A stretch of 45,855 nt of DNA from IMG/VR virus record IMGVR_UViG_3300014494_000003; one strand, 5' to 3'. Below, one piece after another: positions 6,939 to 16,943 of the stretch (position 1 is its first letter; every line of letters starts with the position of its first letter). Source of the stretch: a virus. The notes beneath the pieces were generated by a model. It had not been told where the DNA came from, did no database searches, and saw nothing but the letters and a program-made list of their open reading frames with translations. The position numbers and the translations under genes were made by a program.

Positions 6939-7569
6939 CACGTTGGGTTCGATCGGGGGGGCGATAGCGGCTCCTTTCACGGGGGGTCTGAGCTCCCTCT
7001 TGATGCCCGCGCTGGGTGCGGTGGCCGGCGGGTTGAATAACCGCAGCACCTTGTCGGCCGGGCAGAAGGCGGTCTCCGGCTCGCTGGAGGACCAGCTCAA
7101 CTCGATCATGACCGACCCGAGCGCCGGGACGAATCCCATGCGCGTCGCCGGGCGGGCGCAGATCAATAGCCTGTACGCGGGCGCGCCGGACCAGATCGCG
7201 CGCCAGATGTACGCCCGCGGCTTCGGGGCCAGCGGCAAGGAGGGCAAGGCGGTGATTCAGTCCGACATGGCGCGGCGCGGCCAGATGTCGAACCTGGAAT
7301 CGCAGCTCGCCGAGTACGCCCTGCAACGCCAGCTCGCGGCGATGAAGATCGCGCAGGGGTACGTCGAAAGGCCGGTGGGCGGGAACGTCGCCGGCGGCGC
7401 GATCTCGGGGGGACTCCAGACTCTCATGGCGATGATGACGGCCAAGGGCGGGGCCGGCGGCGGGGGCGGCGGGCTGACGGTGAACAACCTGCCGACCTGG
7501 AACGGAAGCGCTGGGGGGCTGACGCCTTACCAGCTCTCCCCTGGCTACGGCGTGGACTACGGGGGGTAA
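6925..7569 (+). CDS. Gly-rich internal virion protein (candidate)
   Basis: ATG 6925 overlaps the upstream gene by 14 nt. The protein has Gly/Ala-rich hydrophobic ends and a G6 run. Assignment is by position ahead of the giant ORF. Confidence 0.5.
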   Translation: MGLLDTLGSIGGAIAAPFTGGLSSLLMPALGAVAGGLNNRSTLSAGQKAVSGSLEDQLNSIMTDPSAGTNPMRVAGRAQINSLYAGAPDQIARQMYARGFGASGKEGKAVIQSDMARRGQMSNLESQLAEYALQRQLAAMKIAQGYVERPVGGNVAGGAISGGLQTLMAMMTAKGGAGGGGGGLTVNNLPTWNGSAGGLTPYQLSPGYGVDYGG

Positions 7570-7575
7570 ACCAAC

Positions 7576-8823
7576 ATGCCAACGAACAACCCGATCATCG
7601 ACGGGATCATGGACGGGCTCCTGATCCGCGAGCACATGGCGAAGATGACGCAGGACCAGGGCGACTACGAACACCGCATGGCGGCGGACCAGCGCGCGCA
7701 GCAGGAGTTTGAGAACAACATCGTCCAGCAGCGATGGCAGCACCAGCACCAGCAGACTCAGGACCAGCTTCAGGACATCAACACGCGCCTGGCGCTGGGC
7801 ACGAACCCGGGCCTGATCCAGGTGCAGCCAGGCGAGGACACGCGCACGGTGCAGTTGCCGCTCGACGAGACGATGCAGAAGGCCTACGGCGGCATCCCTG
7901 CGCTTTCGATGAGCGTGCCGATCGACAACACCGTCGAGTATGGCGGCCGGCGCTACGCCATGCGCAGCGCGGAGGAACTCGAAGCCGACAAGATGCGCGA
8001 TCTGAACGCGACCAGCGCGCTGAAGCTGAAAGACACACTGGCGGCGAAGAGCCTGGAGCAACAGATGAACCAGGTGTATGTGCCGGGCATCGGCTACGTG
8101 GACAAGAGCGTCGCTCCGAGCTTCATCAACTCGGCGTCGCGGGAGAAGGAGGGCGCGGCGAACCGAACCAACGCCGTCACGGTCGCCAACATCCGCGGCT
8201 CGGCGACGCGCGACACAGCGGCGCGCCGCGACCAGTTGACCCCCAGCGGGGTCGAGTCTGTCCAATCCAACATCCGTAGGGATTTGGCCGCTCAAGAGCG
8301 GGCCGAAGCGCCGCTGGAGCAACTGCGCCAGCGGATCAAAGCCAAGGGGGATGGTAAAGCACTCAACTACACGACCTTCGATAGAGACGGCCTTCCGGCT
8401 ACTGTCAGTCTCACGTCAGAGGAGGCCACACAACGGCTCGGGGAAGTGGAGAACTCGCTGGCCGGGATTCGCAAGAAGAAGGCGCAGATCTACCAGCGCA
8501 TGCTGAACCACGGCTTCATCACTAGCGACGACTACGAGCGCATGGTCGGCGATTTGGGTCTGCCACCCGAACAGAAGACGCCCTCGCCGGCTCCCCAGTC
8601 GCACGCGCCCACAGCCGCTCCCACGCCGGCGCCGACGCCTGCGCCGAAACCGGCGGCAGCTCCGGCGGCCAATCGCCCCGCCAGCGCCGCCTCAACCGCG
8701 AGGCCGCCGCAGGCTGCGCTCGACGCCATTCCGCCCGGGCAGACGGCGACGTTCCGCAATGGCCAGGTGTGGACGAAGAACGCCGCTGGCCAGGTTACCC
8801 AGATCCAACCGCAGGCCCAGTGA
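7576..8823 (+). CDS. Gln-rich coiled-coil internal virion / ejection protein (candidate)
   Basis: ATG 7576. The protein has a QQ/HQ-rich helical N-terminal half and a Pro/Ala-rich tail. Its stop overlaps the start of the giant ORF. Confidence 0.5.
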   Translation: MPTNNPIIDGIMDGLLIREHMAKMTQDQGDYEHRMAADQRAQQEFENNIVQQRWQHQHQQTQDQLQDINTRLALGTNPGLIQVQPGEDTRTVQLPLDETMQKAYGGIPALSMSVPIDNTVEYGGRRYAMRSAEELEADKMRDLNATSALKLKDTLAAKSLEQQMNQVYVPGIGYVDKSVAPSFINSASREKEGAANRTNAVTVANIRGSATRDTAARRDQLTPSGVESVQSNIRRDLAAQERAEAPLEQLRQRIKAKGDGKALNYTTFDRDGLPATVSLTSEEATQRLGEVENSLAGIRKKKAQIYQRMLNHGFITSDDYERMVGDLGLPPEQKTPSPAPQSHAPTAAPTPAPTPAPKPAAAPAANRPASAASTARPPQAALDAIPPGQTATFRNGQVWTKNAAGQVTQIQPQAQ

Positions 8824-11800
8824 TGCCGAGCGAATGGGACATCGTCGATGTGTCGAAGCCGCCCGCCAAGCCCGACCCTTGGGCGGTCGTCGCGATCTCC
8901 CCATCCGCCACGCCGGCACCGCCCGCCGCTGACTCGAGCCCCAACGTCCCCGGTGCCGAGAAGACCGGCCTGCCCGGTCTGCCCGCCATGCCCGTCTCGG
9001 TGACCGAGGAGCCGACGCTCCTCGAGCGCATCGGCAACGTGTTCGGTAAGGGCGCGCAGAATGCTGCCGACTTTCTGCTGCAGAACGCCAAAATGGGCAT
9101 TGCGCCAGGCGCGCCCGTCGCTGCTGCGGCCCCTCCGCCGGGAATTACCGCGAAGCAGGCGACGCAGGCGGCCAAGACCTACGAGACCCCGATGCTCCCG
9201 GTCTCCGAGTTACTCCCCGAGAGTCCCAACGACGGGAACGTGACTAAGTTCGCCAGGGGGGCGCTCCAAGGGGCCGAGGGGCTGACCACTCCGGTCAACC
9301 TGGCGCTGATGGCGGCGCTCGGCGCGGCCGGAGCTACGGCCAGGGCGTCAGTTGAACCGGCAGTACAGCAAGGCTGGCATTTGGCCGACGCGGCGCTTTC
9401 CGCCTACTTCTCGGGCCAGGCCGCGCACGGATTGTATGGTGCCGGCAAGGATGCCGTGGAAGCGGTCGGCAAGGGCGACTGGGGCAAGGCCGCGACCGAC
9501 CTCGGTTTGGGCACGGTGGACGGTCTGATCGCCTACTTGGGAGCGCGCAATGCCTTCAAGAACGTGCAGGGCGCGGCGGAGATCGGCCGGACGCAGCGCA
9601 TTCTCCAGGAGAACCTGAACCGGCGGGAGGCCGCGCGGCGTGCGGCTGAACCCAAGCCTGCCACGGAGTCGATTCCGCCTGCTTCCGGCGCAGTTCCCAC
9701 CGCGACGCGGCTGCTGCCTCCTGGGGAAGCGCCCGAAGCCAAGCCGCCAGCGCCGCCGCCTGAACTGCCGGGAGGGAAGAAGCTGCTGGCCCCCGGAGAA
9801 GCGCCGCTGCCCGAACCGCCGCCTGAAGTGCCTGCCGGATGGCAGATCGTCAAGAGCGAGCCCGCGCCTGAAGTCGAGCCAGCGGCTCCTCGCTCGGGGA
9901 GCGCGTGGCCGCAGGGGATCGCGCCGCCCGTGGGCGTCGAGGTGTTCGACCGCGCGGCGGAGCTGGCCCGGAGCCGAGGCAGCATTTCGCCTATCGTGCT
10001 TCAGCGTGAGCTGGAGATTCCACAGCTCGAGGCTCAGGGACTCTTCCGCCGCCTCATTGGCCAGGGGGTCGTCGACCGGATTGGACGCATCCCCGCGCCG
10101 CCGGAGGATTCCGGACCGGCAGCGGCCCCGCCCCAGAGTGGAGCAGCCAAGGGCGCGCCCGCGATCCAGCCGAAGCCCGACTCAGTCGATTACTACGACC
10201 AGGCTGTCAGCCTGGCGCGCCAGAACGGCGCGATCAGCCGCACCGGTCTGCAGAACGCGTTCGGCCTGAACCGGGACGACGCGCAGTCGCTGCTCAGCCG
10301 GATGATCCAGGGCGTCAACGGCGAGCCGGGCGTGGTCTCGCCGAACGGTAGGTTGATCGCTCCGCAGAAACCCGCTGTTGCGCCGGGCGGCCAGCGGGAG
10401 CTGCCGCTTGTGGCGCAGGGACCGGCGCAGGCGAGCCCGGAGAGCCCGGTCGAGGCTCCTCCATCCCCCGAAGCTCCCCCGCTTCCGCCAGCGGCCCCGC
10501 AGCCGCCGCAAGCGACGCTCTACGACCGCGCCGTCGAGTTCGGCGCGAAGTACGGCAAGGTCAGCCAGGCCGGTCTGCGGCTGCACCTGGGCATTAGCGC
10601 CAGTCGCGCCGACTCGCTTCTGACGCAGTTGTCGCAAGCGGGAAAGATCGACCCGAACACCAAGAAGTGGATCGGCGGCAGGACCGCCCCCATCGGCAAG
10701 CCGGCTCCTCCGCAGATTCTCCCCATAGACAACCGCCCGCCCATGACCTCGGCCCAGCCGGGCGCGCCCGTGACTCCGCTCCCGGCGCCGGCGCCCGCGC
10801 CCGCGGGCGATTTCGAGGGCGCGGCCGACGATCTTCCGCCCGAGCGGGTGGGCCGCACGGAAGAGGTCAGCACGCCCGAGGGGACGAAGGCGCAGGCGCA
10901 ATGGCGGGTCGTCGATCTCGCCCACGACAACCTGCTCACGTCGCACAGTTACGCCGGGGTGGAGAACCCGGAGTATCCGCAGGAGTATCAGAACCGCGAC
11001 CGCTCGCGCATCGCCAGCGAGACGCAGATCCGCGGCATCGCCGCCAACCCGGTTGCCAAGCGGCTCAGCCAAAACTACCTGACGAGCGAGGGCGCGCCGA
11101 TCTACGCCAACCGCGACGGCCGGCGGACGGTCATCTCCGGAAACGGGCGGACGGAAGCGATCAAGCTGGCCTACAAGCAAGGCACCGCCGCGGGCTACCG
11201 CGCGGGCCTGCCCGAGGAGCTGACCGCCGCCGGGATCGATCCGAAGGTGCTCGAAGGAATACAGCAGCCGATGCTGTCCAGGGCGCTGGTCGGCAAGATG
11301 CCGCTCGGCCGCATCGCCCGGGAATCCAACGCGCCCAGCGTCGCCGAGCGCAGCCCGGTCGAGCTGGCGCGGGCGGATGCCAAGCGCCTCACCGGCGCGC
11401 TGATGGAAGCCTTCAAGCCAGGCGAGGACGGGCGGATCGTCACCACCGAAAACTGGCCCTTCATTCAAACCTTCTTCCGCGAGCTGCTCACCGCCGCGGA
11501 GCGGGGGAAGTACACGCTCGGCAACGGCGGCATCAACCAGGCCGGCATCGCGCGCATTCGCAACGCGGTTTTCGCCAAAGCCTACGGGGAGTCGGCCGCG
11601 CTCGAAAACGTGGCCGAGGATCCCGACGACAATGTGCGCAGCATCACCGCCGCCATGCTGCGCGCGGCTCCGTCGTTTGCGCGCGTGGGGGAAGGCGTCG
11701 CCGCGGGCACGCTCCACGATCTCAACATCGCGCCCGACGTTGCCGCCGCCGCCGGCAAACTGTCGAGCCTCCGCGCGCAGGGCACCACGGTCGAGGACTA

Positions 11801-14800
11801 CCTGAACCAGGAGGAGCTGTTCGCGCCCGAACTGTCCCCGCTGGGCCGCGAGATGCTTCGCGTCTTCGGCGTCCACAGCCGCAGCTCCGCCCGGCTGGCG
11901 GAGATTCTGACTAACTACGCCAGCGCCGTCGAGGCGCTCGGCAGCCCTCAGCAAGCCAGCTTGCTGGGTGATACAATTCCGACCAGGGCCGAAGTTCTCG
12001 AGGCGGCAGTCGAGGCCACCGAGGCGAGAGCCAAGCTCCTGGCTGAGCAGCGAAAGGCCAAGAAAGATGTACAGTCCCAAGCACGTAACGACGCGGCCGG
12101 CAGTGGTGGCGAAGTTGGTGACGTTGATGGACAAGGTCCATCAGGGCCAGACCGCGCAGCAGATCCGGCAGGAGTTCGAGCAGGAGCAGAAGCTCCGCCA
12201 GTTCAATCCGCCCCCCGGCAGCAAGCCCCAGTAGCGCCGTCGCCCCGACCTCTAGAACCGCAGCAACCGCCCGCGGCTACGACTGCGGCCTGGCGAGCGG
12301 GTGCTTCGGCGTTGCCTATCGACGTTCAGGAGATTCGTGATTGGTTGCGGGACAACGAAGGGACCGGGAAGCCTGCGACCGTTGAGTACGCGAGGCAGTA
12401 CCTGGCTGGGGCGGACTCTCAGGCCCGGCCGATGCCGCAAGCCGAACCGGCGGCGCAGCCGAAGGCGGAGGCATCCGCACCTGCCCCGCGCTTGCCCCAC
12501 GAGCTCGCCAGTGCGAAGCCGAACTATGCCTTCGGAGCGAAGGAGTTCGCCCTCGATTTCGAGAGCGACATCGACAAAGCGGCTTTCATCGCCGCGCAGT
12601 TTAAGCCATCGAAGGCCGATGCGCAGTACGTTGGCTTCGTTCGCCAGGCGACGGGGCTGTCGACGCAAGCGGTTCGATCCGCCGGTGTGCGCGTGCGCTC
12701 GGCCATCAAGGAGTTGGCGCGTGACGCAGAACCGGGAGTGCTGCGCGTGCCGGACGTCTTGGGGCGGCGCCTGAAGCCACCAGGGGGCGAGACATTCTTC
12801 GCCCCGAAGTTGAAGGATGCCCGCGGCGCGCGAAGCCCGCAAGAGTACTTCGCCGCGGCCGACTCCCGATACGAGGCGTTGCTGCGGGATCGACCTGGCC
12901 ATATTTACGTGAACGCCCCGGCCCACGGGTTAATTGTGAGCGCGCTGCGCCACGCGGGCCTTCCCGCGCAGAACTTCGCCGGCCTCACGCTGGGACCGGC
13001 GGATGCCAACTTGCTGTACCGCGCCCTCGGGGAGTTTGAACAGACCGAGCAGGAGCCCGGCGTCCGCGCCGCGATTGGTCAGATGCGCGCGGCCATGCGC
13101 CAGGCGGCTGGCGAGAGCAAGACTCTGACTTTCGTAAGGAGCGGCCCCGACGTCTCCGCCATGGAACGGCGGACCGCGCGGCGGGAGGAGGAATTCCATC
13201 GGCAACAAATTCTGCGCACGCGCGGGAAGGTGCTCGAAGGTCATGTCGACTCACAGCGCCTCAGTCAAAACCAAACGGTTCACAAAGGCCTGAGGGCCAT
13301 AGAGCGTGACCGCCACGAGACCGGGCAGCGCGCTTATGTGGAACTGGCTGCGAGCTTGGCCAGCGGGCAGTGGGGAGATCTCGGGCTGACGCGAGAGGAG
13401 GCCATCGATGCGCTCCACGCTTACATCGGCGAGATCGTCCGGCTCCACGGAGACCAGGCAGGAGGTATTATCAACCATGTCCACCCAGCAATCCGAAACG
13501 CTGTCCAGGAACGACTGGCGGCATCCGGACAACCTGCAACAGTGGCTGCGCGAACGCTACGGCGACGGCCAGGTCACGACGCCGGGCCAGGTAGCGGCGG
13601 ACAATTTTACCGACCTCTTCGAGGCGTACCGGAGGGGCGGCCAGAAGACCTTCCGAGCCAAGTTCGATCAGATCTTTCCGCCCGAACAGCACCCGTAGAA
13701 CACGCCGGGCCCGGAACTCTGGACCTATTCGGAGAAGAGGCCAACCAAACCAGCCGCGAAGCCGCCAAGAGCGATGCCGCCAAACTCGAAGCCGACCGGC
13801 TCACCGCCGAGTTCGGCAGCGCGCTGAATCGCAATAACCTCCGCAAGAAACTGAAGCCCGGCGAAAAGCCGCAACAGGGCGACCTGTTTGGAGGGATGCC
13901 GGAGAAACCCGCGCAGGGCAAGCTACTGTTTCAGAAGGGCGGGACTGGTCCGCACGGTCCGATCTTCACCGAGTTCCGGCATGACGCCGCCGGCGCGATC
14001 GCCAAGCTGCGCCAGGCGCAGAGCGGCGAAGCCGTGGCGGCGCTGCACCATCCCGCGGTCGGGGACATTGATCTGATTTGGGGCGAGAGCGGCACTAGTC
14101 CGGGAAACGGCTACGGACTGGCAAAGCTGGCGAAATGGCATCCGGAAATCCTGGACAACCTGCAGGAGACGCTGGACACGATGACCGCTGCGGCGCGCAA
14201 CGAGAACACGGTTCAATTGGACAGCGCGACGCACCACGCTGTCGTCCGCAGAAATTGGAAAGGGAACCCTAAGACTTGGCTGCTAACGGCCTTCGAAAAG
14301 AAGCAGCCGTCACTAGCCGGAAGGACGATGGACATTTCCGGCACGCGAGAGGCGCGGCGGGATGACACAGCTCCCCCGCCGAGTGGCGGCACTTCCAGTA
14401 TGGCCCCAACCGGAGAGGGCGGCAAGCGGGAAAAGACCTCAGATTTCTGGAAAGACGAGAGCGGCGAATTCGACCTGGCGAACCTGCGGGCAGGGCTGCG
14501 CGAGAAGTTCGGCGAAGCGGCGAACCAGGCCAACTACACCGGTCTGGGAGCCAAGGACATATTCCTACGCAACTTGTCGCAATTGGAGAAAACTAGCTCC
14601 GCGGGCCACGCCGCAGCGGTCCGTGCGGCCGCCAGCAAGGGACAAGTGGCAGCACTGCTGCGCGCCGCCGTTCCGCGCATCGAGGCGGCCATTGGCAAGC
14701 GCGGGCCGACGTGGACCGAGTTCAGAACGGCGTTGATCGAAAGCCGGCTGCGGGGGATCCGCGAGCGGTGGCGCGCCATGGCCGAGCAGGCTCTCGACAT

Positions 14801-16943
14801 GAGCCCGGCGCAGATGCAGGCCAGCTTCGACAATGGCGTGCTGACGCTGCTGGAGAACATCCAGGACAAGCGAGGCCTCGGGCAAGACTTGGCCGAAACC
14901 GCCGCCGCGATGTTCCAGTCCGCGCAGGAGGGCGACCTGGCGCAGAAGAAACCCGGAGAGCCCGCCTACCCCGTGCTGAGCGAGGGCCCCCACCTGCGGG
15001 CGCTGCGAGACTTTCTCTCGACCACTTACCTCGACGCGGCCGAGTCGGTGGCCGAAGTCTTGCCGGATGAGTTCTTCCATCGTATTACCAGCAGCCCTGG
15101 ATTTGCGCGCGGCCTCGAAGCGTACCGCGAACTGCTCGAGAAGCCGATGGCCGACAATCACGCCCTGAACGAGGGCGTGTTCAGCGATGCTCTGGGCCCG
15201 GTGGGAGCCTACTATCCGCTGGTGCCGGTCACGAGCGCCGAGGCGGCGCAGGCGAAAGCCCCGGGAACGACCTCAGGCTACCGCAAGCCGCGCAACATCT
15301 CCAATGATTTCGCCACGGGCCTCGCGCTCCGGTACGACGCGGGAATGGAGGCGCTGCGCAACCGCTTGACGCGAGCGATCAAAGCTAACAACAAAGCTGC
15401 GCTGATCCAGACGCTGGAAGACGAAGGGCTGCTGCGGAAGATGCGGCCGAACGAAGTAGCGGGGGACGTCATCAACATCGGCGGCGAGGATTTCAAGGCC
15501 GACTACATCAAATCCGAAGGCGTATTGGTTCCGACCTGGCTCCGAAAGGAGCTGGTTCCGATTCTGGAACTCGAAGGCCGGCCGCACCAGCTGGTTCAAT
15601 ATGTCAACCAGGTGATGCAGGTGTTGAACAAACTCTCTCTAGTGGGGCCGCTCAATCTCGTTTACCATGCCACGAACCTGCTGGGGACTTTGACCTTCAA
15701 CACACCTTTCATCCCCGGGTCTGTCCTGGGGGAGAAGGTTGGCAACTCGCCGTTAACAAAACAGTTCTACGCCCTGGTGCGCATCCTTCACACCGACCCC
15801 ACAACCGCGGACGCGGTTGCAGACATGACCGAGATGGCCAAGGTGGGCGCCTTGCCCGACCGCTTCGGCTCGGAGACCTTCTCCCAGCGGTTCGCCGAGC
15901 AACTCGGCGCCGAAGACAAGATGTGGAGGTTCGAAGTGGGCGGTAGGAATCTGGCCCTCCCGAAGAGCGCGGGTCCGATCCTCTTCGGCCCCAAGGGCAT
16001 GGACATTCGGGCGCGCCTGCTGATGTGGCGGATCGCGAAACAACTCCAGCCGCAGGGGAACCCGCAAAGCTGGGCTAGGTCCACGAATCAACTCGGCGTC
16101 TACGTGCGTGGGATGCAGAGCGACATAGAACGCGCGCTGAAGGCGAGCGGTTTCTCTCCGTTCTTCACCGCCGGTTCCACGATGGTGCGCAACGGGATCA
16201 ACGGCTTTCTGGGACGTGGCCCGATCACGAGCGACAAGTTCAGTTATCGACTAAAACAACTACTGACGGGGGGGGCCCCTGCGCTCATCGCCATCTGGGC
16301 TCTGATCAACAAGGCGTACCGGGGCAAGTGGCCCTGGGAAGAGCCAAATTCGAAACTCTTGGCGTTCGCCGTGAAGCCGGCCGACCGCAATTCCGCACTG
16401 GGCCGGGCGCTGTGGGGCTCGAAGCCGGGCACGGCCTACGTGAATCTGGCCTTCATCAATCCGTTGCTGGCGCGCGGCCTGCGCGCACTGGGCATCATGG
16501 ACGCCTACGAGACGCGGCAGCTCGGCGGGTCGTTCGATCAGATCACGAAAGCCGCAGTAAAGGGATCGGCGAATGCGTTTATCGGGCCGGCCGCCGGCCC
16601 TCTGGTGCGGACCGGCATGATCGCCGCGACGGGCCGCGAGCCGTATCTGACGGACGTGCAGGATGTGACCTTCATGCGAGCGGCGGCGAAAAAGCCGGGA
16701 TTCCTACGCAGTCGCGTCGAGTATGGCAAAGAGGCCGCGCTCAGCCTCAATAATTTCTTTGGCAACCTGGCCACGGCTACTGGGATCGGGTACGAAGCGG
16801 AGCGCGCAGCGAAGACCGGTAACGCTGCGTTGCGGATGCTCACCGATCTGGCTGCACCCCGCCTGGTGGGAACGGTTTCGGATCAGTCGGCCAAAGCGAG
16901 ACGGCTGGCCAACGAGCGCCGGGCAGCGGCGCGGGAGCGGTGA
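8823..16943 (+). CDS. Giant polyvalent virion protein, 2,706 aa: 3x FtsK-gamma-like wHTH, a ParB/Srx-like module, a small nuclease-like module and a hydrophobic C-terminal third
   Basis: ATG 8823 overlaps the upstream TGA. There is no frame-0 stop for 8.1 kb. Recognisable modules are separated by Pro/Ala-rich linkers (see findings). The position is equivalent to the ejected core proteins of podoviruses. Confidence 0.7.
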   Translation: MPSEWDIVDVSKPPAKPDPWAVVAISPSATPAPPAADSSPNVPGAEKTGLPGLPAMPVSVTEEPTLLERIGNVFGKGAQNAADFLLQNAKMGIAPGAPVAAAAPPPGITAKQATQAAKTYETPMLPVSELLPESPNDGNVTKFARGALQGAEGLTTPVNLALMAALGAAGATARASVEPAVQQGWHLADAALSAYFSGQAAHGLYGAGKDAVEAVGKGDWGKAATDLGLGTVDGLIAYLGARNAFKNVQGAAEIGRTQRILQENLNRREAARRAAEPKPATESIPPASGAVPTATRLLPPGEAPEAKPPAPPPELPGGKKLLAPGEAPLPEPPPEVPAGWQIVKSEPAPEVEPAAPRSGSAWPQGIAPPVGVEVFDRAAELARSRGSISPIVLQRELEIPQLEAQGLFRRLIGQGVVDRIGRIPAPPEDSGPAAAPPQSGAAKGAPAIQPKPDSVDYYDQAVSLARQNGAISRTGLQNAFGLNRDDAQSLLSRMIQGVNGEPGVVSPNGRLIAPQKPAVAPGGQRELPLVAQGPAQASPESPVEAPPSPEAPPLPPAAPQPPQATLYDRAVEFGAKYGKVSQAGLRLHLGISASRADSLLTQLSQAGKIDPNTKKWIGGRTAPIGKPAPPQILPIDNRPPMTSAQPGAPVTPLPAPAPAPAGDFEGAADDLPPERVGRTEEVSTPEGTKAQAQWRVVDLAHDNLLTSHSYAGVENPEYPQEYQNRDRSRIASETQIRGIAANPVAKRLSQNYLTSEGAPIYANRDGRRTVISGNGRTEAIKLAYKQGTAAGYRAGLPEELTAAGIDPKVLEGIQQPMLSRALVGKMPLGRIARESNAPSVAERSPVELARADAKRLTGALMEAFKPGEDGRIVTTENWPFIQTFFRELLTAAERGKYTLGNGGINQAGIARIRNAVFAKAYGESAALENVAEDPDDNVRSITAAMLRAAPSFARVGEGVAAGTLHDLNIAPDVAAAAGKLSSLRAQGTTVEDYLNQEELFAPELSPLGREMLRVFGVHSRSSARLAEILTNYASAVEALGSPQQASLLGDTIPTRAEVLEAAVEATEARAKLLAEQRKAKKDVQSQARNDAAGSGGEVGDVDGQGPSGPDRAADPAGVRAGAEAPPVQSAPRQQAPVAPSPRPLEPQQPPAATTAAWRAGASALPIDVQEIRDWLRDNEGTGKPATVEYARQYLAGADSQARPMPQAEPAAQPKAEASAPAPRLPHELASAKPNYAFGAKEFALDFESDIDKAAFIAAQFKPSKADAQYVGFVRQATGLSTQAVRSAGVRVRSAIKELARDAEPGVLRVPDVLGRRLKPPGGETFFAPKLKDARGARSPQEYFAAADSRYEALLRDRPGHIYVNAPAHGLIVSALRHAGLPAQNFAGLTLGPADANLLYRALGEFEQTEQEPGVRAAIGQMRAAMRQAAGESKTLTFVRSGPDVSAMERRTARREEEFHRQQILRTRGKVLEGHVDSQRLSQNQTVHKGLRAIERDRHETGQRAYVELAASLASGQWGDLGLTREEAIDALHAYIGEIVRLHGDQAGGIINHVHPAIRNAVQERLAASGQPATVAARTLRRRPGHDAGPGSGGQFYRPLRGVPEGRPEDLPSQVRSDLSARTAPVEHAGPGTLDLFGEEANQTSREAAKSDAAKLEADRLTAEFGSALNRNNLRKKLKPGEKPQQGDLFGGMPEKPAQGKLLFQKGGTGPHGPIFTEFRHDAAGAIAKLRQAQSGEAVAALHHPAVGDIDLIWGESGTSPGNGYGLAKLAKWHPEILDNLQETLDTMTAAARNENTVQLDSATHHAVVRRNWKGNPKTWLLTAFEKKQPSLAGRTMDISGTREARRDDTAPPPSGGTSSMAPTGEGGKREKTSDFWKDESGEFDLANLRAGLREKFGEAANQANYTGLGAKDIFLRNLSQLEKTSSAGHAAAVRAAASKGQVAALLRAAVPRIEAAIGKRGPTWTEFRTALIESRLRGIRERWRAMAEQALDMSPAQMQASFDNGVLTLLENIQDKRGLGQDLAETAAAMFQSAQEGDLAQKKPGEPAYPVLSEGPHLRALRDFLSTTYLDAAESVAEVLPDEFFHRITSSPGFARGLEAYRELLEKPMADNHALNEGVFSDALGPVGAYYPLVPVTSAEAAQAKAPGTTSGYRKPRNISNDFATGLALRYDAGMEALRNRLTRAIKANNKAALIQTLEDEGLLRKMRPNEVAGDVINIGGEDFKADYIKSEGVLVPTWLRKELVPILELEGRPHQLVQYVNQVMQVLNKLSLVGPLNLVYHATNLLGTLTFNTPFIPGSVLGEKVGNSPLTKQFYALVRILHTDPTTADAVADMTEMAKVGALPDRFGSETFSQRFAEQLGAEDKMWRFEVGGRNLALPKSAGPILFGPKGMDIRARLLMWRIAKQLQPQGNPQSWARSTNQLGVYVRGMQSDIERALKASGFSPFFTAGSTMVRNGINGFLGRGPITSDKFSYRLKQLLTGGAPALIAIWALINKAYRGKWPWEEPNSKLLAFAVKPADRNSALGRALWGSKPGTAYVNLAFINPLLARGLRALGIMDAYETRQLGGSFDQITKAAVKGSANAFIGPAAGPLVRTGMIAATGREPYLTDVQDVTFMRAAAKKPGFLRSRVEYGKEAALSLNNFFGNLATATGIGYEAERAAKTGNAALRMLTDLAAPRLVGTVSDQSAKARRLANERRAAARER
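12067..12234 (+). CDS. Nested +1-frame small ORF, 55 aa, inside a linker of the giant ORF
   Basis: ATG preceded by gaaagg..agaaag, ending in TAG. By hand count, 50 of 55 codons end in G/C in this frame, against about 20 of 56 in the giant frame over the same span. Confidence 0.4.
   Translation: MYSPKHVTTRPAVVAKLVTLMDKVHQGQTAQQIRQEFEQEQKLRQFNPPPGSKPQ
13477..13698 (+). CDS. Nested +1-frame small ORF, 73 aa, inside a second linker of the giant ORF
   Basis: AGGAGG at 13460..13465, then an AT-rich spacer gtattatcaacc, then ATG; it ends in TAG. By hand count, 61 of 73 codons end in G/C here, against 32 of 74 in the giant frame. Confidence 0.45.
   Translation: MSTQQSETLSRNDWRHPDNLQQWLRERYGDGQVTTPGQVAADNFTDLFEAYRRGGQKTFRAKFDQIFPPEQHP

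Follow-up and report, generated by a model that had tools for sequence, protein, structure and literature searches.

The stretch of DNA analysed here (the window) is the 45,855-nucleotide viral record IMGVR_UViG_3300014494_000003 of IMG/VR, and our subject is a small open reading frame (ORF) on its plus strand, consisting of 73 codons and a TAG stop codon at 13477..13698. Very probably this ORF is a true protein-coding gene, which is nested in the +1 frame of a giant gene for a phage virion protein of the polyvalent type. The giant ORF (8769..16943, plus strand, 2724 codons) is read in the frame whose first codon bases fall on coordinates divisible by three, called f0 or the host frame in the following, and the nested gene is read in the +1 frame, f1. 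The nested frame has a coding signal and is conserved as a protein in distant relatives, start signals precede it, and the host frame running across it is under selection for staying open. Accordingly, the nested stretch would be translated in both frames.

A preliminary description of the window, based on the letters alone, had given the coordinates and the peptide of this ORF, and all of these proved correct on rechecking. An AGGAGG hexamer at 13460..13465 is followed by the A/T-rich spacer GTATTATCAACC, by the ATG at 13477, and finally by the TAG at 13696..13698, and the 73-residue product contains the peptides NDWRHPDNLQQWLR and FDQIFPPEQHP. The fraction of codons ending in G or C (GC3) is 0.84 in f1 (61/73) and 0.43 in f0 (32/74), the same values that had been counted by hand. 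A log-odds model of codon usage, trained on the remainder of the giant ORF, assigns +24.5 bits to f1 and -36.9 bits to f0 over 13477..13695. The resulting gap between f1 and f0 is +61.4 bits. Equally long control windows from the giant ORF, 755 in number, have a gap of -83.2±17.4 bits and reach at most -35.0 bits. Also if all six frames are scored, f1 of the plus strand ranks best. An antisense gene was considered as well and rejected: a stop-free minus-strand ORF of 73 codons at 13471..13692 scores 7.1 bits versus 25.5 bits for f1 of the plus strand, and is a shadow ORF of the kind commonly seen opposite GC-rich genes (the GC content of the window is high, about 0.65). The coding score of f0 is positive again from about 13700, so that the giant frame regains its signal directly behind the TAG as had been proposed. 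Among the long ORFs of the window, internal frame switches are found in the giant ORF only. The nested frame thus has a coding signal independent of that of its host.

The same geometry had been noted for a second site of the giant ORF, and an equal frame switch in codon scores and GC3 is indeed seen there. This other nested gene (nested gene 1, with the 73-codon gene being nested gene 2) comprises 55 codons and a TAG at 12067..12234 on the plus strand, scores +21.2 bits in f1 and -20.2 bits in f0, and has a GC3 of 0.91 in f1 versus 0.36 in the host frame. Its Shine-Dalgarno (SD) sequence is weak. No homologue of the 55-residue product could be detected, the other nested ORFs described below included, nor could it be shown to be a paralogue of the 73-residue product.

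Two frame changes within 222 nucleotides would give the observed GC3 pattern if paired compensating indels had put an in-frame segment out of frame. Such a sequencing or assembly artefact is, however, extremely improbable. A separately deposited contig of the Joint Genome Institute (JGI) from sample 3300050009 (L008, 1258 bp) is 100% identical to the window over 13121..14378, and the JGI gene caller predicted the same 73-residue protein on it. In addition, the segment is bounded by an ATG and a TAG, f1 stops are present upstream of the ATG in relatives, and the same geometry is found in eight other assemblies from different samples. The earlier argument that two instances in one ORF speak against sequencing error is therefore well supported.

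No close relatives suited to a substitution-rate test were found among the GenBank phages, at DNA or protein level, or among the GTDB genomes, and the JGI metagenomes offered matches of only 30-47% identity. The phage of the window therefore belongs to an uncultured lineage. Two of the relatives, L001 (35-38% identity) and L010 (42%), share the host domain at the site of nested gene 2, and six further ones were fetched via the conserved C-terminal module of the giant protein. The giant ORFs were then scanned blindly for frame switches. Every giant ORF contains between one and three +1 segments, each with an ATG-initiated ORF, and the scan revealed no +2-frame segments inside giant ORFs. In total there are 15 nested ORFs at nine loci, all of them in +1, all intact, and all with an ATG near the onset of the coding switch. 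The giant ORFs of the relatives extend to more than 4100 codons and encode methylase, SNF2-helicase, or 2'-5' RNA-ligase-like domains.

The nested frame is conserved at the level of the protein, and this conservation is not explained by the host frame. A profile built from nested ORFs of the relatives L018, L020, and L021 and searched against a local set of 3665 six-frame ORFs has the 73-codon ORF as its best non-seed match (E=2.1e-5, 22.7 bits), with the next best match at E=0.47. The same procedure applied to the host-frame translations yields E=91. Conversely, the best non-self matches of the 73-residue protein in a phmmer search of the same set are the nested ORFs of L018 and L020. The shared motif is [FL]D.[IVML][FY]PP, which is preceded by S-P-x-x-L-A and an amphipathic helix. 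Over the motif region the variation at nested third positions is synonymous, and the host frame encodes unrelated peptides over the same bases. A lack of conservation of the +1 ORF in related genomes, which would have counted against the gene, is thus not observed. All four members of this family (window, L018, L020, and L021) are located between 15 and 260 codons upstream of the C-terminal module, behind differing upstream domains. A degenerate DNA pattern for the FD..FPPE motif retrieved only the contig of L020 again and unrelated proteins.

Searches in general collections gave a different picture. Neither Pfam nor PHROGs contain a match for the small proteins of 73 and 55 residues, and a word-indexed search of the 73-residue peptide against protein collections, as the preliminary description had suggested, returned the protein itself only. 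Six further matches from an exhaustive phmmer search, to TPR-like, NHL, and eukaryotic repeat proteins were judged spurious, their scores being inflated by four to ten partial matches each. The 73-residue protein looks like an orphan because gene callers forbid genes inside genes.

At the site of nested gene 2 itself, L001 and L010 encode +1 ORFs of 53 and 131 codons, respectively, in which GC3 is above that of the host frame and across which the host frame is open, as is the case for the 73 codons of the window. Within the 131-codon ORF of L010 (339..734) there is a direct repeat, which can be recognised in either frame (SPSIAPP../NPSTAPA.. in the nested and EPLHRPTSGEP/EPLYRPSGER in the host frame). 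This ORF also includes the folded-domain-like stretch RRSYFVWSDRISYYEIGEDGQLLLH, and was called by the gene caller of ENA. Its product matched itself only, without any homologue.

Several other nested ORFs and gene arrangements were observed in the relatives. A second nested +1 family with the motif HW[RQE]E..P...G.L is found in L024 (4356..4736), L022 (3063..3311), L020 (2754..3107), and L023 (2937..3194). It adjoins the upstream side of the methylase/SNF2-helicase modules and has no member in the window. The TnpV family (PF14198) was considered and rejected: the 73-residue and 55-residue proteins do not match it, and the L024 ORF alone scores 23.4 bits (E=6e-5), which is below the cut-off of 27. 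L019 contains a nested ORF (9258..9506) whose position resembles that of nested gene 1, upstream of a domain with the motif DFESDIDKA; the similarity of the two is not significant. In addition, the region upstream of the giant ORF in L019 (1..12448) is split into separate genes in different frames, and the giant frame itself is interrupted by one in-frame stop (7313..7315). The giant gene may be unfused in L019, or fused only in part.

Differences in the degree of fusion, such as the separate upstream genes and the single in-frame stop of L019, would also fit a relic, that is a once independent gene that was swallowed in a fusion and that keeps its old codon bias although it has lost both its translation and its use. 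By its codon usage the nested frame is the native one and the host spacer the newcomer, as expected for a relic. Nevertheless, a relic is improbable. An unexpressed ORF would lose its frame, its codon bias, and its start signals, whereas the members of the family still share 22-32% identity, their substitutions follow the pattern of a protein, and 15 of 15 nested ORFs are intact. It is also hard to see why SD cores and open start regions should be enriched at the starts of relics, or why the T-ending His/Tyr codon that carries the ATG should have been kept in three lineages.

These start signals are best seen if all nested ORFs are considered together. An SD core (GGAG, GAGG, or AGGA, 4-18 nucleotides upstream) precedes 11 of the 15 nested ATGs but only 47 of 336 control ATGs (14%), which are the other +1-frame ATGs of the same giant ORFs (p=3e-7). 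The 60 nucleotides around the nested starts have a predicted folding energy of -11.8 kcal/mol versus -16.8 kcal/mol in the controls (p=5.5e-5), and they are also less GC-rich. Translation signals at the nested starts, whose absence would have counted against the gene, are therefore enriched across the set. At nested gene 2 the AGGAGG on the plus strand (13460..13465) lies 11-12 nucleotides before the ATG at 13477. The same bases encode two glycines of the host protein, and together with the AT-rich spacer they double as the host-frame residues G-G-I-I-N, which are kept in the two relatives L001 and L010. The textbook AGGAGG with its AT-rich spacer, as emphasised in the preliminary description, is thus really there, but it is composed of conserved host codons and is not purely a start signal.

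In a three-way DNA alignment of the window, L001, and L010, the pattern GAGG..AT.AT.AA..ATG is invariant. The +1 ATG is located inside homologous N-[HY]-[VA] codons in these three sequences, and the His/Tyr codon ends with T each time (CAT, TAT, and TAT). Homology in the host frame passes through the hexamer, the spacer, and the ATG, with GGIINHVHPAIRNAV in the window, RGIIKYVRP--RYAKE in L001, and RGIINYAQAHIRGEV in L010, and it extends about 10-15 codons beyond the ATG at 13477. The conserved host-frame domain concerned (12804..13520, plus strand, amino acids 1346 to about 1584, motifs EEEFHRQQ ... GIINHV) is 35-42% identical to L001 and L010 by tblastn and alignment, and ends over the first codons of nested gene 2. 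The placement of the ORF in a linker of the giant ORF is correct in this respect, except that the host linker proper begins only about 15 codons past the ATG.

The start site could also be located further upstream. Another AGGAGG at 13396..13401 precedes an f1 ATG at 13408 with an ideal spacer of six nucleotides (the complete element spans 13396..13410, plus strand), and initiation there would add 23 residues to the nested protein and result in a 96-residue product. However, the codon score of f1 is negative over 13410..13470, and the homologues align from the ATG at 13477 (MSTQQSETL versus MSRSSKTKL). Therefore, we favour the ATG at 13477, although the ATG at 13408 could be used as well.

Internal SD-like elements upstream of a shift site are known to stimulate frameshifting, as in RF2 and dnaX. 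Such an element is present here, and in the window the open stretch of f1 already begins at 13390, that is 29 codons upstream of the ATG. Accordingly, a programmed +1 frameshift near 13470 could generate a truncated isoform of the giant protein carrying the 73 residues as alternative tail instead of a free protein. This scenario is very unlikely. In 9 of the 15 nested ORFs an f1 stop is located one to seven codons before the ATG, which leaves almost no room for a shift, and the switch invariably sets in with an ATG. These nine cases are discrete units of stop, ATG, and stop, and slippage would not account for them. A slippery or stop-codon shift motif common to the window, L001, and L010 is missing at the homologous site, and an Rfam scan did not reveal a known recoding element. 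Scans for known RNA families, promoters, and terminators gave no match. A sub-threshold Rfam match at 12255..12291, to the Mycobacterium small RNA Ms_IGR-4 (26.8 bits versus a gathering score of 55, E=0.061), is most likely due to chance in a Pro/Ala-rich, GC-rich stretch.

As another possibility, the blocks of the giant ORF and the small ORFs could be independent cistrons, with an open host frame that is accidental or is not translated through. For a single gene this is conceivable, given that the chance of an open host frame is 0.1-0.3 and that gene callers split the region on short contigs. We determined this chance by resampling the synonymous codons of each nested protein and recording how often the host frame stayed open, and obtained 0.10 for nested gene 2 and 0.005-0.34 elsewhere. 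At four loci a single open frame covers all of the 10-kb flank, so that the eight nested ORFs there were not selected for openness, and for these eight the product is about 1e-8. For these eight unbiased cases together an accident is hard to imagine. Moreover, open frames span over 4100 codons in four relatives, and the upstream block is not closed by a host-frame stop. Directly after the TAG of nested gene 2 the coding score of f0 is high at once, and yet the first 66 codons of the host frame (13698..13895, plus strand) contain no ATG, GTG, or TTG, the first start in f0 being the ATG at 13896. In L018 the stretch without a host-frame start exceeds 130 codons, and yet homology to the protein of the window begins 45 nucleotides behind the nested stop. 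Behind the other nested stops there are no consistent host-frame starts either. Separate cistrons are thus highly improbable, and because of the missing start codons f0 appears to be entered from upstream and would be read through as spacer.

The spacer itself (13521..13697, plus strand) uses rare codons, with the low host-frame GC3 of 0.43, is not conserved (the profile value of E=91 given above), and is predicted to be coil. It includes the peptides LAASGQPATVAAR and GVPEGRPEDLPSQVR. In an AlphaFold2 model of the f0 peptide (predicted TM score, pTM, 0.23) residues 18-55 are coil, and the first about 17 residues continue the upstream domain. The host frame is therefore probably functional across the overlap, judging by its openness and by the lack of a place to restart. 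Selection thus acts on both frames, on the sequence of the nested one and on the openness of the host one.

Taken together, a late mRNA could be read in two ways. Ribosomes coming from the start of the giant gene would pass through the region in f0 and synthesise an unconserved, probably disordered spacer of about 60 residues and rare codons, a flexible tether joining two modules. Other ribosomes would load at the internal AGGAGG and ATG, where the mRNA is locally AT-rich and weakly structured, and would make a 73-residue three-helix protein, terminating at the TAG where the next conserved host module begins. That 15 of 15 nested ORFs are in +1 can be understood from the genetic code. In this geometry a host-frame stop needs a T at a nested third position, where a GC3-rich gene seldom has this base. 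With the alternative offset the stop needs a T at a nested second position, which is common. The +1 arrangement would thus be the only one in which a GC3-rich gene rarely generates stops in its host.

Since of the two frames only the nested one has a codon usage like that of the genome, the nested frame appears native and the host spacer a newcomer. This suggests that the small gene came first or dominates in this stretch, and that the spacer is a read-over by which modules were joined. Alternatively, the nested gene may be an old de novo gene that has since adapted to the genomic codon usage. Going further, the giant polyvalent genes of this phage lineage might have been assembled by reading across small, pre-existing, and still expressed genes, with the host in the -1 frame relative to the nested gene, the only frame in which stops are seldom met. 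The spacers would then be overprinted on working genes, and the nested proteins would be cis-encoded partners such as chaperones or regulators of the adjacent modules. We regard this as a speculative and rather unlikely extension.

Concerning the function of the 73-residue protein, the single-sequence AlphaFold2 model of the f1 peptide consists of three helices with a mean local confidence (pLDDT) of 68.8 and a pTM of 0.49, compared to 0.23 for the f0 peptide. A Foldseek search of the model against the PDB returned nothing at E below 4. The nested family travels with the C-terminal module and not with the upstream domain or the nuclease. Therefore, the protein could possibly be a dedicated, cis-encoded partner of the C-terminal module, either a chaperone or a helper in assembly, packaging, or ejection, and we put this forward tentatively, with some doubt. 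An antitoxin or immunity protein against the PBECR1 nuclease was rejected as candidate: family members are present in L018 and L021, their giant proteins show neither PBECR1 nor any other Pfam domain, and only 15 and 69 codons, respectively, separate the nested stop from the C-terminal module there. The earlier idea that the product might neutralise the downstream nuclease-like module is consequently left without support. An embedded spanin of the Rz1 type was rejected as well, the 73-residue protein having neither a cysteine nor a hydrophobic N-terminal stretch.

Some observations weigh against a nested gene at this site or limit what can be said about it. Translation of either frame is inferred. 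The SD sequence and its spacer belong to conserved host codons, so that their conservation cannot be assigned to one frame. With 11 nucleotides the spacing is at the long end, and the ATG at 13408 has the better-spaced SD sequence. No significant similarity was detected among the three nested proteins that start at this place in the window, L001, and L010. The 73-residue protein has no homologue apart from itself in 5.8 billion clustered proteins or in 1.84 billion representatives. Its family membership is based on a four-member profile with identities of 22-32%. The confidence of the structural model is only moderate and Foldseek did not find a match, and the functional proposal is based on synteny alone. 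Considering all evidence, the coding signal, the conservation, and the start signals still support a genuine small ORF with its own ribosome-binding site in +1 of the giant ORF, as originally proposed.

The host gene belongs to a known class of phage genes. According to Pfam, the giant protein contains a ddrB-ParB domain (77.6 bits, cut-off 27.6), an FtsK_gamma domain at amino acids 583-631 (31.8 bits, cut-off 30.6), and, just under the cut-off, a PBECR1 nuclease domain at amino acids 1760-1846 (14046..14306, plus strand; E=1e-5, 26.4 bits versus 27.6). PHROG matches were also obtained. The neighbouring genes of the window include a match to an internal-virion-protein PHROG upstream and the large terminase downstream, and the relatives are viral contigs of IMG/VR. 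Because of the hallmark domains ddrB-ParB and PBECR1 and the location among virion genes, the giant gene is a phage gene for a polyvalent-type virion protein. As in other members of the class, several effector domains, hallmark ones among them, are combined in one polypeptide. The Pfam and PHROG scans of the 2724 residues did not reveal any peptidase family and thus no processing metallopeptidase (MPTase) hub domain, which is frequent in the polyvalent class but not obligatory.

The C-terminal module of about 800 residues (amino acids 1903-2724; 14475..16889, plus strand) is common to all related giant genes, with 33-46% identity to L018-L024 in tblastn searches. The nested genes of the family of the 73-residue protein sit just upstream of it. 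It does not match any entry in Pfam, PHROG, or PDB, and is an uncharacterised conserved virion-protein module.

Two further features of the giant protein were observed. Amino acids of about 395-640 (about 9950..10690 of the window) comprise three segments of about 45 residues that look alike by eye (DRAAELARSRGSISPIVLQRELE.., YDQAVSLARQNGAISRTGLQNAFG.., and LYDRAVEFGAKYGKVSQAGLRLHLG..). The third alone reaches the FtsK_gamma threshold, and the three are probably a triple winged-helix DNA-binding array. In addition, the short host-frame motifs LDLFG, GDLFG, and RDLF are found just after the nested stop, at 13716..13736 and about 13875..13895 in the window and at about 7000 in L001. These presumably resemble the QL[SD]LF motifs that bind the beta-clamp.

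Genes nested in phage genes are well known. In lambda, the Rz1 gene is entirely embedded in +1 in Rz and starts independently. Its product is a lipoprotein of the outer membrane carrying a signal sequence and a lipobox cysteine, and both Rz and Rz1 are functionally constrained across the overlap. The arrangement described here is alike in that a phage gene with its own start lies completely in +1 inside a larger one. However, Rz is a small protein and not a multidomain giant, and the host spacer here is unconserved. The nested genes of phiX174 (B in A, E in D, and K) are same-strand phage genes, too, and were similarly found through frame-specific composition. But there the nested reading arose de novo and is atypical in its codon usage, and the host is ancestral, so that the polarity is reversed here.

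In hepatitis B virus (HBV), the polymerase spacer overlaps the S gene. This has been modelled as modular overprinting with a codon-usage criterion for overlapping viral genes (PMC8227390). As in the giant gene, a small gene (preS/S) is completely contained in a larger one on the same strand in another frame, and the overlapped part lies between functional domains as a spacer that tolerates change and is poorly conserved. From codon usage in sliding windows it would seem that the small gene pre-existed and that the domains of the large gene were joined across it (PMC8227390), which is the same pattern as here. In contrast, HBV infects animals and replicates by reverse transcription, almost all of its bases are dual-coding, and its nested gene encodes an envelope protein. 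The present case concerns a double-stranded DNA phage with a gene of 8-12 kb for a virion protein, and several unrelated small genes in different spacers, each with a bacterial SD sequence. By analogy, the HBV polymerase spacer/S overlap and the phage Rz/Rz1 pair appear to be the closest counterparts.

The polyvalent proteins of phages and conjugative elements have been described with respect to their domain architectures only (Iyer et al. 2017, PMC5512222). The giant gene resembles this class in its DdrB-ParB and PBECR1 domains, in the methylase and SNF2 helicase of its relatives, and in its virion-gene neighbourhood. The words frameshift, overlapping, and linker are absent from the text of that study, and nested genes are not mentioned. 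We did not find any report in the literature of nested genes in polyvalent or giant virion-protein genes. While nested phage genes as such are already known, the recurrent nested genes in a family of giant virion-protein genes, with a native nested frame and an atypical host frame, are new.

All 15 small genes are invisible in normal annotation. The two frames are coding under different selection, the nested one for its sequence and the host one simply for remaining open. Native codon usage is found in the nested frame, which is the reverse of classical overprinting. This suggests a route by which giant multi-domain phage proteins could grow, namely by fusion through read-over of intervening genes. 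The nested proteins are candidate helpers of virion-packaged effector proteins, a class with few experimentally characterised members. If true, these genes would represent a general and so far unannotated layer of phage coding capacity, genes within the linkers, and reveal a mechanism by which multi-domain anti-defence giants grow.

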